Positions 5,833 through 63,127 of a DNA stretch of 64,000 nt are shown here, piece after piece (within the stretch, counting starts at the first letter, position 1; every line of letters starts with the position of its first letter). Where the stretch lies: positions 9,366-73,365 of the forward strand of contig CAZYBS010000003.1 of NCBI GenBank assembly GCA_964645245.1, written 5' to 3'. The stretch comes from an uncultured Candidatus Saccharibacteria bacterium. GTDB taxonomy: Bacteria; Patescibacteriota; Minisyncoccia; Phycocordibacterales; UBA9973. Position numbers and translations under genes: made by a program. The notes under the pieces are model-generated. The model searched no databases. It was not told the DNA's origin and was given only the letters and a program-made list of their open reading frames with translations.

Positions 5833-8393
<2,561 letters not shown>

Positions 8394-48220: not shown

Positions 48221-48296
48221 TGGAGCCGCCTCTCGGACTCGAACCGAGGACCGACTGTTTACAAAACAGTTGCTCTACCAACTGAGCTAAGGCGGC
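48221..48296 (-). tRNA. tRNA-Thr (anticodon UGU); CCA encoded
   Basis: Reverse complement GCCGCCT-TA-GCTC-AGTTGGTA-GAGC-A-ACTGT-TTTGTAA-ACAGT-CGGTC-CTCGG-TTCGAGT-CCGAG-AGGCGGC-T-CCA with all stems perfect. Confidence 0.9.
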
Positions 48297-48526
48297 AATA
48301 CTTTCTTTAAAAATCTTCTTCCTGCTGCTGACTTTAAATATAATTCTCTTTTTCTTGCCTCTTCAAATGTAGCATATCGTTCTTTATAAACAAGTATTAA
48401 CTCTTTCATGTGGTTCGTAGTTATTGTGTGCCCAGAATGGTGTTCAGCCAGTCTTCTTTTCAGATTATTTGTCATTCCCTTATATACTTTTCCTTTATTA
48501 TCTTTTAGTACATAAACTGTAAACAT
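48287..48526 (-). CDS. Small GIY-YIG nuclease-domain protein (79 aa) ending inside the 5' end of tRNA-Thr
   Basis: FTVYVLKDNKGKVYKGMTNNLKRRLAEHHSG is the GIY-YIG core. The last codons (CCG CCT TAG) are tRNA nucleotides 3-10. Confidence 0.7.
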   Translation of the reverse strand: MFTVYVLKDNKGKVYKGMTNNLKRRLAEHHSGHTITTNHMKELILVYKERYATFEEARKRELYLKSAAGRRFLKKVLPP

Positions 48527-48554
48527 ATTTTTACAAAACAGTTACTCCTACCAA

Positions 48555-48598
48555 CTCCCGCCCGAACGTGCCGAAAGCAGTTCGGTACGGGCGGGGAG
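48555..48598. repeat. Family B GC-rich hairpin, intergenic copy (CTCCCGCCCGAACG..GTTCGGTACGGGCGGGGAG)
   Basis: Shares the 12-mer cccgcccgaacg with the mreC in-frame copy. Also 10-bp outer stem plus inner GCCGAAagcagTTCGG. Confidence 0.65.
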
Positions 48599-48625
48599 CT
48601 TTATTCCGGCGAATTATTTACTACT

Positions 48626-57017: not shown

Positions 57018-57330
57018 TTTTTTGTTGCAGGCATCTATAAGCCGAATTCTGTATTCCCGACGCAAGGTCGGGATGATAGCAATTTGTCTAGGTCCGGCAT
57101 TACTGCGGGACTCAAGCGATTCTTCCCTCGATTTCTCTCGGGGCACGATCTTGCACAGGAGTAAGTATTTAGCCGTTTCAGCCGGACTTAACCGGGTCGT
57201 TTCTGTTCGCAACTCCGTATCACTACGGAAGGGTATTACCCTCTACTTTTTCCCGCTAAGCGGGATCTGTGTTCGGACTTTCCTCCCCTCACCTCTAGAG
57301 GTGAGGGGTAGCTATCCAATACCTGCTCAG
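57018..57330 (-). ncRNA. rnpB: RNase P RNA, reduced bacterial form (about 310 nt)
   Basis: On the minus strand: P4 5' strand GGAGGAAAGTCCGAACACAG and P4 3' strand ATACAGAATTCGGCTTATAGATG (consensus GGAAAGUCCGG...ACAGAAnnCGGCUUA). P1 pairing GAGCAGGTA/GATGCCTGC. Terminator CTCCGCCcataaGGCGGAG+TTTT at the 3' end. Putative promoter TTGCGA-17-TGTAAACT at 57333-57361. Confidence 0.8.
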
Positions 57331-60335: not shown

Positions 60336-60394
60336 ATGGAATAATTGTACAAAAAGAGACTGCACAATGCAAGTTGCCTTGATGTATCTTTTTG

Positions 60395-60467
60395 TGGACC
60401 CTAGCGGTCTCGAACCGCTCACCTCCTCATTGCAAATGAGGCGCTCTACCAGATGAGCTAAGGGCCC
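60395..60467 (-). tRNA. tRNA-Ala (anticodon UGC) with G3:U70; CCA not encoded
   Basis: Reverse complement GGGCCCT-TA-GCTC-ATCTGGTA-GAGC-G-CCTCA-TTTGCAA-TGAGG-AGGTG-AGCGG-TTCGAGA-CCGCT-AGGGTCC-A. Confidence 0.88.
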
Positions 60468-60488
60468 CTCTGCTCGCGAGCAGAGGGG

Positions 60489-60761
60489 CTAAGGGCCCTC
60501 CACTTGCAAGCCAGACGAATTCTTTATTCTCTTTTTCAACTCTTTATATCCAGCGGAAAAACGTTTCAACATGTCTTCGCGATGTTTGGCGTCAGCTTGT
60601 GCTTTATATGCTTCATAATAAACAAGCTGAAAAGGTGCTTTGTGTTTTGTTGAAACATTTTTACCGCTATTATGTTCCACCAAACGCCTTTTCAAATCAT
60701 TTGTGTATCCAATGTATAACTCCTTTAATCTAGCACTCTTTAATACGTAAACATAATACAT
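60489..60761 (-). CDS. Small GIY-YIG nuclease-domain protein (90 aa) immediately upstream of tRNA-Ala
   Basis: YYVYVLKSARLKELYIGYTNDLKRRLVEHNSG is the GIY-YIG core. Stop lies 21 nt from the tRNA 5' end. The gap holds the palindrome CCTCTGCTCGCGAGCAGAGG flanked by a duplicated GCTAAGGGCCC. Confidence 0.7.
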   Translation of the reverse strand: MYYVYVLKSARLKELYIGYTNDLKRRLVEHNSGKNVSTKHKAPFQLVYYEAYKAQADAKHREDMLKRFSAGYKELKKRIKNSSGLQVEGP

Positions 60762-61003
60762 GTTTTTGTATTCTACATTCTATCTTATTTTCTCAATAAT
60801 GCAAATTTTGTTGTTGTTTTTTCCGTCATTTCTGGTACTATGGTAAAAGTTCTTTTTAAAATAAATAAATTCCGGGGTAGTTGAAATACGATAGTATTTC
60901 AAAGGCGGAGGCACGAAAGGTGCCGAGTCGGGGTCGCGAGATTTTTCAGTAGAAAAATACTTGTGACCAGCGGTGTCCGCTGACCTATCTCGAATGAATA
61001 AAT

Positions 61004-61323
61004 TCCGGGGTAGCTCAGCGGTAGAGCGATCGCCTGTAGAGAGATGCAGCTTCCTAAAGAAACTTAGGAATGAAAACAAGGTGAATTCGGGGAAGCCCTT
61101 CGAGATAAACTCTCAGGGTAATCCCGAGCCAAGCTCTGGTAAGCCAGAGAAGGTGTAGAGACTATCCATTTATGGAGTACATCAACACTAAATGTTGATG
61201 GAAGCGCCTTGCTCCTAAACTTATAGCGCAGGCTATGAATATGGAGATGATATAGTCCACACTTCTAGTAATAGGAGATAAAGTGTAAGCGATTGGTCGT
61301 AGGTTCGATCCCTACCCCCGGAG
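61004..61323 (+). tRNA. tRNA-Asn (anticodon GUU) interrupted by a 248-nt group I intron in the anticodon loop (exons 61004-61037 and 61286-61323)
   Basis: Exons: TCCGGGG-TA-GCTC-AGCGGTA-GAGC-G-ATCGC-CTGT|TAA-GCGAT-TGGTC-GTAGG-TTCGATC-CCTAC-CCCCGGA-G. The spliced loop CUGUUAA and discriminator G73 match bacterial tRNA-Asn. Confidence 0.75.
61038..61285 (+). ncRNA. Group I self-splicing intron (IC3-like, as in bacterial tRNA introns)
   Basis: P7 strands GTAGAGACTATCC and GATGATATAGTCC. P4/P6 conserved ACTCTCAGGGTAATCCCGAGCCAAGC (compare cyanobacterial tRNA-Leu intron CUCAGGGAAACC...AAUCCUGAGCCAAGCC). IGS GCAG pairs with exon CUGU with U.G at the 5' splice site. Terminal omega-G at 61285. Confidence 0.75.
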
Positions 61324-61534
61324 CTCGTAAAAATCTTAGGTCGCTAGAAATGGCGGCCTTTGATTTTTTGAGCTACGGGGAGAAAGCAAAATGTTTTGCT
61401 TTCGTGTAGGGAGCGAAAAGCTTTTGTGTCTTTTTAGAAACTTGTTTAAAAAAAGTACAAAAGGTATACTGCCCCTGTAAGGGGAGATAACCTACCCCCG
61501 GAGCCAAATTAGATAAATGTAACAATCTAAAATT

Positions 61535-62243: not shown

Positions 62244-62690
62244 ATGGTTTCCGAAACGAGGAGAAAGGAATTAGGCAACGCTTTTGTGAATGAGGGCGAC
62301 CTGCTAATTTCAAGAAGCGGAAGCGTTGGCATAGTTTCTGTTGTGCCAAAGGAGGCGGAGAGATTTGCGTTCGGCTCTTTTATGATTAAGTTCTGCTTAA
62401 ATGATAAAATAGATAGGGATTTTGTTTCTATGTGGCTTAATAATAAAATATCCCAGTTATTCATTAAACGAGAGAAAATCGGTGCTATACAAGGCAATAT
62501 AACGATAGAGACCATTGAAAATTTACAGATACCAACTCCGCCGTTGGCAACTCAAAAGAAATTAGCGGGAGAGGTTAAAGAACGATTAGCCCAAGTAAAG
62601 AAAATAAGTGCGGAAGCCCAAGAGGAAGTTGAGAAAGCAAAAGATTCTGTTGAAAATTTGATTAAAAATCAAAATAGTTATAAAATTTAG
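62244..62690 (+). pseudogene. hsdS: Type I restriction-modification specificity subunit (HsdS) fragment: partial target-recognition domain + conserved spacer
   Basis: GDLLISRSGSVGIVSVV...IPTPPLATQKKLAGEV (the canonical IPxPPLxEQxxI HsdS motif). Only 148 aa. No hsdM or hsdR in the window. Confidence 0.6.
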
Positions 62691-62692
62691 CA

Positions 62693-63127
62693 ATGAAACA
62701 CCCCAAGAAACATAGAAAAAGAGTAATAAGGCACGCTGAAAAAGGTTCTTTGGTGAAGGGGTATCTTGAGAAAAAAGATAGAAAGGGGTTTGAACTTCTT
62801 TTACCACGATATAGAGAAGTTATAGGGGACAGCTCTGGAATTTATGCTCTGTATAAAAGAAAAAAACTTTACTATGTCGGCATTGCTCAAAATTTGTTGG
62901 GTAGAGTTGAGCATCACACTAGAGGCAAACATAAAAATCGCTGGGACAAAGTTAGTTTTTTCGTAATAGATAAACACCGATATAGCAAAGACATAGAAAC
63001 CATTATTTTGAGAATAGCCGAACCGAGAGGCAACGGCACGAGGGGCAAGTTTGAGAAACACTACGAACTTCAGGACAAATTACATAAGATACAGAGAGAG
63101 ATGAAAGATTTGATTAAAAGAATATAA
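62693..63127 (+). CDS. GIY-YIG-domain protein (144 aa)
   Basis: SSGIYALYKRKKLYYVGIAQNLLGRVEHH is GIY...YVG...N..R..EH. Basic N-terminus. Confidence 0.55.
   Translation: MKHPKKHRKRVIRHAEKGSLVKGYLEKKDRKGFELLLPRYREVIGDSSGIYALYKRKKLYYVGIAQNLLGRVEHHTRGKHKNRWDKVSFFVIDKHRYSKDIETIILRIAEPRGNGTRGKFEKHYELQDKLHKIQREMKDLIKRI

Follow-up and report, generated by a model that had tools for sequence, protein, structure and literature searches.

Small GIY-YIG nuclease genes joined to tRNA genes in Patescibacteria are probably parts of selfish, tRNA-targeting mini-elements

We analyzed a pair of small GIY-YIG nuclease genes in 64,000 nucleotides (nt) of DNA from an uncultured Candidatus Saccharibacteria bacterium (contig CAZYBS010000003.1, positions 9,366 to 73,365, of assembly GCA_964645245.1), a stretch that is called the window in what follows. 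The two genes are on the minus strand, one upstream of a tRNA-Thr gene and the other upstream of a tRNA-Ala gene, and comparison with related loci indicates that they are probably the nuclease genes of selfish GIY-YIG mini-elements that target tRNA genes of Patescibacteria and reside within them. An earlier note on this DNA, made from the sequence alone, had drawn attention to the two genes, and its coordinates for all features were found to be correct by use of ARAGORN, Rfam, Pfam, and inspection of the sequence. It had also taken the two proteins to be paralogues, which agrees with the 47% identity between the 79-amino acid (aa) protein at the tRNA-Thr (family A) and the 90-aa protein at the tRNA-Ala (family B). 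The features of both loci are given in Table 1.

Table 1. Features of the two GIY-YIG/tRNA loci, in window coordinates (ORF, open reading frame).
Feature	Position	Strand	Evidence
tRNA-Thr(TGT), intact, CCA encoded	48221..48296	-	ARAGORN; Rfam RF00005, 71.6 bits; sequence
Family-A GIY-YIG ORF, 79 aa, bare catalytic domain	48287..48526	-	Pfam PF01541, E 2e-11
Dead copy of tRNA-Thr nt 14-39 (AGTTGGTAGGAGTAACTGTTTTGTAAA)	48530..48556	-	Local alignment
GC-rich hairpin hpA, 39 nt, CCCGCCCG...CGGGCGGG	48557..48595		Hairpin pattern, anatomy/fold
Decayed copy of tRNA-Thr nt 1-13 (GCCGGAATAAAGCTC)	48596..48610	-	Read from sequence
tRNA-Ala(TGC), intact, G3:U70 pair	60394..60467	-	ARAGORN; Rfam, 61.8 bits; sequence
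Perfect 24-nt palindrome hpB, CCCCTCTGCTCG/CGAGCAGAGGGG	60465..60488		Sequence
Duplicate of tRNA-Ala nt 1-11 (GGGCCCTTAGC)	60488..60498	-	Sequence
Family-B GIY-YIG ORF, 90 aa	60489..60761	-	Pfam GIY-YIG, E 1.3e-15
Promoter-like TTTGCA-17-TAGAAT just 5′ of family-B ATG	60777..60805	-	Consensus scan only; weak evidence

At the first locus, the family-A ORF shares its final 10 nt with the intact tRNA-Thr. Read on the minus strand, the ORF ends in ...GTA TTG CCG CCT TAG, where the G of the TTG codon is nt 1 of the tRNA, CCG CCT are nt 2 to 7, and U8-A9-G10 supply the TAG stop codon. The earlier note had recognized this overlap but placed it at nt 3 to 10, whereas it covers nt 1 to 10. On the other side of the ORF there is a dead, partial copy of the same tRNA, of which the part corresponding to nt 14 to 39 had a local alignment score of 22 relative to a control mean of 11 and stops 3 nt short of the family-A ATG. 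The hairpin hpA splits this dead copy at nt 13/14 and is in the less common of two orientations relative to the ORF (see below); it is the sole match to the hairpin pattern in the window, in which 0.02 matches were expected. The acceptor strand of the dead copy reads GCCGGAA, compared to GCCGCCT in the live tRNA-Thr, and GCCGGAA is the acceptor strand of the live tRNA at another locus, L047. The dead tRNA half and hairpin (48530-48610), which were absent from the earlier note, are the key to the architecture of the unit. The window belongs to a metagenome-assembled genome of the Parcubacteria (Patescibacteria/CPR), and in a protein search the 79-aa protein was 100% identical to one from 'Parcubacteria group bacterium Gr01-1014_24'.

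A promoter-like sequence, TTGAAG-18-TATATT, is present on the minus strand at 48337-48366, within the family-A ORF and about 40 nt ahead of the tRNA-Thr, where it overlaps the codons of a conserved FEEARKRELYL motif; locus L010 has TTGACA-18-TATATT at this place. The site could serve as an internal promoter from which the tRNA is still transcribed once an element has inserted, or it could merely reflect AT-rich codon usage.

The protein search gave 323 relatives of the family-A ORF, nearly all of 78 to 80 aa and all from bacteria of the candidate phyla radiation (CPR). The last two to three residues of these proteins vary (LPP, LPE, MPR, LGP, LRA, GPLA, and others), as is expected if the ORFs read into different acceptor stems. 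Loci were found with a 12-sequence alignment, a 29-sequence alignment being too divergent, on contigs representing one genome per species, with tRNAs called by ARAGORN; this yielded 80 family-A loci, and all of the comparative sequences are metagenome assemblies. A same-strand tRNA gene lies directly downstream of the ORF in 77 of the 80 loci, and two of the three exceptions are due to contig ends. The stop codon is within the tRNA in 57 of the 80 ORFs: it begins at tRNA nt 8 in 43 loci, at nt 13 in 9, and at nt 21 in 3, and two ORFs extend further into the tRNA. About 15 ORFs end at a stop codon of their own, 3 to 19 nt ahead of the tRNA. The partner tRNAs at the 80 loci are those for Thr, Ala, Phe, Val, Ile, Asp, and Lys, and loci that were fetched independently by the hairpin pattern contained family ORFs at the same -7 offset and added Arg, Met, and Ser to the partners.

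The adjacency to tRNA genes that the earlier note had seen twice, and for which it had proposed a genome-wide comparison, is therefore beyond chance, because it is near-universal in both families (77/80 in family A, and 12/12 in family B as described below). A small, AT-rich genome with many short ORFs, and data assembled from metagenomes, might lead one to think of a chance adjacency or of an artefact of annotation or assembly, but the junction is identical to the nucleotide in dozens of independent assemblies from different studies, and the ORF has a confident Pfam match and AlphaFold2 (AF2) model. This explanation is already refuted by these data, and we give it practically no credence.

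Copies of the tRNA upstream of the ORF were sought by aligning each downstream tRNA to the 250 nt 5′ of its ORF. The order found in most of the 80 family-A loci, and in the window, is a partial copy of the 5′ part of the same tRNA, followed by a GC-rich hairpin, tRNA nt 22 to approximately 39, and the ATG. The upstream copy is often exact over 20 to 22 nt, matching nt 1 to 21, and an exact match of at least 10 nt to the first 40 nt of the tRNA is present upstream of the ATG in 55 of the 80 loci, with a hairpin at most 200 nt upstream of the ATG in 69. A duplication of variable length, 17 to 46 nt, flanks the family-A ORF; no terminal inverted repeats were found around it.

Several loci depart from this order in informative ways. 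In L079, L032, L012, and L014 the hairpin is borne by a full-length second tRNA. In L001 the resident tRNA-Thr is split between nt 21 and 22, and its halves enclose a cassette that contains the hairpin, the ORF, and another tRNA-Thr allele and is bounded on both sides by the same hairpin. Loci L016, L111, and L157 are mirror images, in which the intact tRNA is followed by the ORF and then by the hairpin and/or a dead 3′ part, and L221 contains tandem units of dead tRNA, hairpin, and ORF. Pseudogenised family-A copies are still in place in L005 and L077, and three metagenome-assembled genomes contain two copies each. Taken together, the ORF is always within a tRNA gene that is kept whole by partial duplication, and the hairpin, where present, is in the adjoining dead copy.

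The family-A hairpins have a common anatomy, consisting of an outer stem of 7 to 8 bp (CCCGCCC/GGGCGGG), a conserved GAAC(G) bulge, and an inner stem that varies with compensatory changes. Their insertion points in the dead copies (marked by a caret) are GGTA^GAGC (21^22) in about 56 of 95 cases and xxTA^GCTC (9^10) in about 17, and a few hairpins are at 13^14, in the anticodon loop, or in the T arm. About 95 hairpins were found within approximately 1 kb of the ORFs, compared to about 3 in the other approximately 370 kb of the same loci, and within the 80 loci the hairpins are almost entirely confined to dead tRNA copies. The hairpins matched no Rfam family in a scan with gathering cutoffs. 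They are found in either orientation with respect to the ORF (63 versus 23), with the G:T position constant on one strand of the element, which favors a DNA-level element over an RNA signal of the ORF transcript; an RNA-level role of the hairpin in that transcript is therefore unlikely. The hairpin may be a site for the nuclease, a breaker of the direct repeat by which the ORF would be deleted, or a mere passenger.

Some hairpins are found in other settings. Arrays of dead tRNA halves that lack an ORF and are full of hairpins are present 5′ of live tRNAs in L210, L126, L170, and L174, and the hairpin-riddled array of L174 occupies the rpsB-tsf site that is described below. The dead halves of these four loci contain other palindrome families as well (e.g., CCTGCCTGCCTGCCGGCAGGCAGGG and CCCCGCCGTGGCGGGG), and hairpins nested within hairpins were seen in L001, L015, L051, and L068. 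A 7-nt target duplication was suggested by a few cases in which the hairpin is flanked on either side by one and the same heptamer, within a short run of 7-nt tandem repeats (10 of 119 hairpins, compared to 0.2% of shuffled controls; examples are the metagenome loci L108, L160, L189, L127, and L164, such as CAACCAG CAACCAG-hairpin-CAACCAG), but this idea was rejected as a rule because 103 of the 119 have none. Elsewhere in the window, a small palindrome, CCCCTCCTCAATAAGGAGGGG, occurs twice (949-969 and 7591-7611), and there is a larger GC-rich inverted repeat at 6784-6817.

In family B, of which 1145 relatives were found, typically 84 aa long with C-termini such as ..KNSLM and ..KNSLA, inverted repeats enclose the ORF. 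A same-strand tRNA (Ala, Lys, or Val) is directly 3′ of the ORF for all 12 of the family-B proteins that were looked up on their contigs. Seven independent contexts (L233, L243, L250, L257, L259/260, L261, and L262) have a common architecture: tRNA nt 1 to 11 are followed by a perfect left inverted repeat of 11 to 19 nt, CCCCTCAC..., with the ATG within 0 to 5 nt of it, and the stop codon of the ORF is within, or in contact with, the right inverted repeat, ...GTGAGGGG, which is followed by the intact tRNA, the first G residues of which overlap the repeat. A direct repeat of tRNA nt 1 to 11 (9 to 11 nt) is present on both sides of the element in every case. Elements with the ends CCCCTC.../...GAGGGG were found with an ORF (L233, L243, L250, L257, and L259-L262) and as palindromes that have the same ends and flanking repeats but no ORF (60465-60488 in the window, L223, L252, L256, and L261). 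By their sequence, these solo palindromes appear to be ORF-less derivatives of family-B elements. In L250, a family-B element and a family-A element are in series 5′ of a single tRNA-Ala.

At the tRNA-Ala of the window, the ORF that ends 21 nt before the tRNA, the perfect palindrome, and the duplicated tRNA 5′ segment, all described in the earlier note, were confirmed in the sequence. The 21 nt between the ORF and the tRNA are all part of the palindrome hpB, the final GGG of which is nt 1 to 3 of the intact tRNA-Ala, and the end of the ORF, ...GAG GGC CCT TAG, is a copy of tRNA-Ala nt 1 to 10. In the closest relatives of this protein (P0122-P0127) the C-terminus is ..VEGP or ..VEGR, as results from translation of the tRNA-Ala 5′ end. 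The palindrome hpB consists of the left and right family-B inverted repeats without an ORF between them, and the same arrangement is present in L256. By eye, the 3′ end of the window ORF, GCAAGTGGAGGG (60496-60507), resembles the right repeat of L261, GGCAAGTGAGGGG, and it looks like a degenerate right inverted repeat that lost its in-frame TGA, so that the ORF would continue to the TAG of the duplicated tRNA start. Our reading is that a family-B element that was fused to this tRNA-Ala may have been displaced upstream by a later, ORF-less palindrome, with the tRNA 5′ end regenerated once more. The consensus promoter scan near this ORF gave 2 sites compared to 1.4 expected, and so the promoter-like site in Table 1 is weak evidence.

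A perfect 24-nt palindrome, CCCCTCACCTCTAGAGGTGAGGGG, with the ends CCCCTCAC.../...GTGAGGGG of the family-B inverted repeats, was also seen at 57285-57308, inside the RNase P RNA gene (57022-57327, minus strand), directly 5′ of the conserved GGAAAGTCCG and roughly at the position of P3. Possibly a palindromic element has settled here in a helix of the RNase P RNA that tolerates it.

The two small ORFs score 44.5 and 57.9 bits with Pfam PF01541, for which the curated cutoff is 22.6. In an alignment of 29 sequences, residues Y5, Y15, G17, R24, R25, E28, H29, and E61 are invariant, and the conserved GIY-YIG residues align with their counterparts in the UPF0213 proteins EF2693 and BH0048. The catalytic Arg and Glu, whose absence the earlier note had named as counting against its observation, are thus both retained throughout. 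An AF2 model of the family-A protein (predicted local distance difference test 93) has the topology E-E-H-E-H-H, with a three-stranded sheet flanked by helices. A search of Protein Data Bank (PDB) sequences with the family profile matched EF2693 (1ywl, E 1.1e-7) and BH0048 (1zg2, E 1.3e-5), with a weak match to the Slx1 N-terminus; Foldseek matched the model to 1zg2, 1ywl, and Slx1 (6seh_C), the last with a template modeling score of 0.66 and a root mean square deviation of 2.4 Å. Identity to the UPF0213 and Slx1 proteins is 26 to 33%, and TIGR01453 scores 16 to 18 bits against a cutoff of 56. Neither I-TevI nor UvrC was among the significant PDB profile or Foldseek matches. The closest relatives in sequence and predicted fold are therefore the UPF0213 proteins and Slx1 and not I-TevI or UvrC. 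The term homing endonuclease, which the earlier note had offered in its comparison, does not hold as a statement of family membership, because these are bare UPF0213/Slx1-type domains of 79 to 90 aa that lack a DNA-binding domain.

A phage origin of the genes was considered and rejected: neither PHROG nor a tblastn search of 50,697 phage records gave a match. No integrase is next to either tRNA in the window, where the neighbors are EF-Ts and ORFs of 144, 176, and 112 aa without integrase domains, and Rfam gave no group I intron at either GIY-YIG ORF, the only one in the window being at 61028-61278. No terminator was found between ORF and tRNA, and the two may be co-transcribed, to judge from their arrangement.

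Movement of the nuclease gene relative to its host was evaluated at a single chromosomal site, represented by 17 Thr-linked loci with rpsB and tsf upstream (136 pairs). The mean pairwise identity was 48.5% for S2, 54.0% for EF-Ts, and 65.9% for the GIY-YIG protein, and GIY-YIG identity was greater than S2 identity in 96% of the pairs. The Spearman rho was 0.32 between GIY-YIG and S2, compared to 0.65 between S2 and EF-Ts. In the pair L007/L015 the GIY-YIG proteins are 92% identical and the S2 proteins 47.5%, and the nucleotide similarity runs from the dead tRNA copy to the 3′ end of the tRNA; in a group with approximately 80% S2 identity, the GIY-YIG proteins are merely 72 to 78% identical. 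These comparisons indicate that the nuclease gene has spread horizontally to a conserved cognate site without following the phylogeny of its hosts.

The tRNA itself has been exchanged at some loci. At about 15, including the window, the dead copy has a valid acceptor stem unlike that of the live tRNA, and in L001, L003, L007, and L012 the tRNA allele was replaced and the resident tRNA left split. The live allele of the L001/L003/L049 lineage differs from that in the relative L016, and ORFs linked to different tRNA types intermingle in the ORF tree. The idea that the intact tRNA always travels with the ORF is nevertheless unsupported (see below), and replacement was seen in particular loci only. 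The targets are strongly biased: TAG at nt 8 to 10 together with TAGAGC at about nt 20 to 25 is present in 90% of 98 adjacent tRNAs compared to 38% of 127 other tRNAs in the same loci, and the nine tRNA types without these motifs are almost never occupied. The median ratio of nonsynonymous to synonymous substitution rates (dN/dS) of the GIY-YIG gene is 0.18, and so the protein is under purifying selection.

These results bear on the choice that the earlier note had set out, between a selfish module and a role in tRNA processing or repair, and that it had held to be beyond what sequence can decide. It is conceivable that the gene is a housekeeping partner, co-transcribed with the tRNA for repair, processing, or quality control of the tRNA or its gene, with the fusion as a regulatory device; the near-universal linkage, the intact ORFs with a dN/dS of 0.18, and the lack of a terminator that would separate ORF and tRNA are all in keeping with this. 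However, the number of copies is not constant and neither is the partner tRNA (Thr, Ala, Phe, Val, Ile, Asp, Lys, Arg, and Met), the tRNA types are interspersed in the ORF tree, and at a fixed site that tree is incongruent with the host. The flanking dead tRNA fragments, duplications, and inverted repeats are marks of insertion and not of an operon, pseudogenes and ORF-less scars are tolerated, and the GIY-YIG enzymes characterized so far act on DNA (general knowledge and the overview PMC3045582). We therefore consider a housekeeping role improbable. The architecture, repeats, serial insertions, target bias, host-incongruent similarity, and pseudogenes are such as mobile nuclease cassettes produce, whereas a housekeeping operon would leave none of these. 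In this respect comparative data, namely the dead tRNA fragments, duplications, family-B repeats, serial insertions, host-incongruent nuclease tree, and pseudogenes, do favor the selfish module of the earlier note.

The association of hairpin and nuclease was further evaluated by a scan of metagenomes with a strict pattern of one hairpin subtype, which matched at least 120 contigs. Among the matches listed there were 121 hairpins, of which 15 were at most 400 nt from a family ORF, 27 were at most 500 nt from a tRNA, and 90 were near neither a tRNA nor a GIY-YIG gene. Therefore, the view that the hairpin is exclusive to the GIY-YIG/tRNA unit, which had fitted the window and the 80 loci, was rejected. 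Exactly 36 nt was the length of 80 of the hairpins among the matches listed, and 55 were within stop-free frames of at least 150 aa; by this length and in-frame location, the hairpins behave like Rickettsia-type palindromic elements (RPEs). Matches in viral contigs were mostly due to chance in GC-rich contigs, with the exceptions of L083 and L095.

The 36-nt hairpin (e.g., CCCGCCCGAACGACTGAAGCCGTTCAGTCGGGCGGG) was seen in frame within long ORFs in L095 (12244-12279) and L083 (12837-12869), and in L189, L151, L173, L160, and others. In a Mu-like transposase it accounts for 12 additional residues, such as PARTTEAVQSGG, and an identical 36-mer was found in unrelated contigs. In CPR and other metagenome contigs there is thus an RPE-like phenomenon.

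A number of points weigh against the interpretation as selfish elements. The hairpins that are remote from both genes make the link between hairpin and nuclease statistical only. The catalytic domain fills the whole of the 79 to 90 aa according to Pfam and AF2, with no DNA-binding domain, unlike characterized homing endonucleases. The similarity of the tRNAs is related to the host roughly as closely as to the nuclease (partial correlation 0.17 between tRNA and GIY-YIG given S2, and 0.25 between tRNA and S2 given GIY-YIG), which means that the tRNA does not always travel with the ORF. The synonymous divergence (dS) is still 0.40 for the closest family-A pair, and so the transfers were not recent. 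A clean empty site, that is, the same tRNA in a close relative with neither element nor scar, was not found; at the rpsB-tsf-tRNA-Thr site, the search among the loci fetched gave only L174 (scarred and ORF-less) and L175 (a different tRNA). There is also a problem of self-immunity, in that a nuclease recognizing only sequence internal to the tRNA would cut its own regenerated tRNA. High conservation and strong purifying selection would also suit a gene that is useful to the host, and in metagenome assemblies, the source of all the sequences, short repeats can be misassembled.

Some of these points suit an explanation in which the gene is a passive hitch-hiker. In that case, a host-useful or neutral UPF0213-type gene would have been moved by way of conserved tRNA recombination anchors after DNA uptake, with its own nuclease inactive in the movement and with the palindromes as unrelated elements, similar to miniature inverted-repeat transposable elements (MITEs), piling up in dispensable dead fragments. 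The hairpin as an independent dispersed element that is often in frame within long ORFs, the strong purifying selection, the lack of a DNA-binding domain, and the tracking of the host by the tRNA as much as of the ORF would all be accounted for. It would not be expected from such hitch-hiking that the family-B ORF is exactly between inverted repeats, with its start and stop embedded in or touching them, nor that ORF-less palindromes with the same ends and flanking repeats tie nuclease and palindrome into one unit; the extreme density of hairpins in dead fragments, the many copies per genome, the serial insertions, and the strong target-sequence bias also argue against it. On balance we think hitch-hiking unlikely, although it deserves some weight, and the selfish tRNA-targeting element is the interpretation that we prefer.

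A mechanism for such an element can be proposed. The element sits in a tRNA gene of the class whose D-arm reads TAGCTCA..GGTAGAGC, and its insertion is accompanied by partial duplication of the tRNA, so that the gene survives: an essential single-copy tRNA is not killed because the element carries or creates a duplicate of the part that it displaces. The intact tRNA is then directly 3′ of the ORF, or more rarely 5′, and the dead fragment of the same tRNA is on the opposite side. Because the ORF abuts nt 1 of the tRNA, it reads into the acceptor stem, with the universal U8-A9-G10 as its stop codon. In family B the arrangement is transposon-like, with inverted repeats enclosing the ORF and direct repeats of tRNA nt 1 to 11 outside them. 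In family A approximately nt 1 to 39 of the tRNA are duplicated, and in nearly every dead copy a GC-rich palindrome, itself a separate element, has interrupted the sequence, for the most part at TA^G (9^10 or 21^22). Movement may be by homing-like repair or by true transposition, and family B looks transposon-like whereas family A does not.

The 79-90-aa GIY-YIG domain would cut DNA at or near the tRNA sites or the palindromes, and repair from an occupied copy would spread the cassette within and between genomes, with the conserved tRNA on both sides as homology. Because both homology arms are inside the conserved tRNA, recombination could carry the cassette to the cognate tRNA even in a distant genome. 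Cleavage of the ORF-tRNA co-transcript by RNase P at +1 would strip the stop codon from the ORF and so lower the level of nuclease, in which case only unprocessed transcripts could release the protein.

A bolder version of this interpretation, which we put forward tentatively and would not at present bet on, is that the GIY-YIG domain acts alone as the 'transposase' in a new class of mobile prokaryotic DNA, made up of palindromic-ended elements of approximately 0.3 kb that would enter a specific site in the 5′ half of a tRNA gene and restore the end of the tRNA. Large families of ORF-less palindromes, the MITE-like hairpins, would also be mobilized by this nuclease, among them the 36-nt in-frame insertions in protein-coding genes and possibly the palindrome at P3 of the RNase P RNA. 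A structure-specific, Slx1-like nuclease would drive the transposition or homing of cruciform-ended DNA, with its expression gated by RNase P.

The third GIY-YIG-like protein of the window, which the earlier note had grouped with the two small ones, is unrelated to them. Its ORF (62693..63127, plus strand; 144 aa) scores 22.6 bits with the Pfam GIY-YIG family, exactly at the cutoff, and GIY, YxVG, R, H, and E motifs were recognized by eye. It adjoins a 148-aa fragment of hsdS, the specificity subunit of a type I restriction system (62244-62690, plus strand), and weakly matches the candidate defence protein PADLOC PDC-S14 (E 4.6e-5). The motifs and the hsdS neighbor were therefore as the earlier note had described them, but at 144 aa and with no tRNA fusion it is not the same phenomenon as the small ORFs, and it is probably a separate remnant of a defence island.

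The nearby tRNA-Asn(GTT) gene (61003-61337, plus strand), with the exons TCCGGGGTAGCTCAGCGGTAGAGCGATCGCCTGT and TAAGCGATTGGTCGTAGGTTCGATCCCTACCCCCGGAG, was missed by ARAGORN and has a group I intron in its anticodon loop (RF00028, 61028-61278, 58 bits). Locus L223 has a tRNA-Asn without an intron, and L256 has the same exon 2 context.

Several known systems resemble these elements in part. In phage T4, the gene of the GIY-YIG endonuclease SegB is in the tRNA cluster and promotes the inheritance of that region (PMC2330249). The position of a GIY-YIG gene between or beside tRNA genes is common to both, and the T4 gene spreads together with the flanking tRNAs by cutting the rival allele. Proteins of the Seg/I-TevI family are about 200 aa or more and have a DNA-binding domain, whereas here there are bare UPF0213/Slx1-type domains of 79 to 90 aa, encoded inside the tRNA gene on bacterial chromosomes, where part of the tRNA is duplicated, the ends are palindromic, and the stop codon comes from the tRNA. 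In fungal mitochondria, free-standing GIY-YIG and LAGLIDADG ORFs adjoin partial duplications of host genes (e.g., C-terminal duplications of atp6 and cob; PMC6279837), and so there, too, a nuclease ORF is beside a duplicated part of a host gene, with the functional gene kept and a dead fragment left. The fungal hosts are protein-coding genes with a 3′ duplicate, whereas here the host is a tRNA with, usually, a 5′ duplicate, and the tRNA fusion, inverted repeats, and MITE-like derivatives are further differences.

The UPF0213/YhbQ proteins and Slx1 (1zg2, 1ywl, and 6seh) share their minimal fold and catalytic motifs with the proteins studied here. Slx1-Slx4 cleaves branched DNA (PMC4407285, PMC8287910), and a structure-specific enzyme similar to Slx1 would by analogy suit palindromic or cruciform ends, although Slx1 differs in that it requires Slx4 and has an additional RING domain. 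In the open-access literature we found no mobility role and no link to tRNA genes for UPF0213 proteins.

With MITEs and RPEs, which Ogata and co-workers reportedly described in 2000 as surviving inside genes, the palindromes have in common that they are short and dispersed in small genomes, many being exactly 36 nt and in frame within long ORFs, and the ORF-less palindromes of family B share their ends with an ORF-bearing parent, as MITEs do. They differ in that the parent ORF encodes a GIY-YIG protein and not a DDE or HUH transposase, in that the hairpins are concentrated in dead tRNA fragments, and in the 103 of 119 family-A hairpins without a target-site duplication. Genomic islands and prophages with a tRNA gene as their integration site depend on a tyrosine or serine integrase; their target is usually the 3′ end of the tRNA, and they are kilobases long. 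They resemble the present elements in keeping the target tRNA intact by a duplicate of the displaced part, whereas here there is no integrase, it is mostly the 5′ part that is duplicated, and the whole element is approximately 0.3 kb. The nearest known kinds would be free-standing endonuclease cassettes and MITE-like palindromes, and there is a substantial chance that a new, GIY-YIG-driven class of mobile DNA is involved. Nothing in the open-access literature was found to link GIY-YIG/UPF0213 genes to tRNA genes or to these palindromes in CPR bacteria, and the elements are apparently undescribed so far and common in these ultra-small bacteria.

If the interpretation as selfish elements is correct, a very small and very abundant selfish element would be added to the known repertoire, with hundreds to thousands of copies across the Patescibacteria, which make up a large share of bacterial diversity. 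A nuclease gene is known to live with an essential RNA gene in two ways, by splicing, as in introns, or by sitting beside the gene, and partial duplication of the gene would be a third. The elements would provide the first biological context for the UPF0213/YhbQ-type mini-nucleases of unknown function, would account for dead tRNA fragments and GC-rich palindromes that confuse the annotation of CPR genomes, and would offer a testable connection between RNase P processing and how strongly a selfish gene is expressed. Tool builders would, in that event, also have an interest in a nuclease of only 79 aa that has a defined DNA target.

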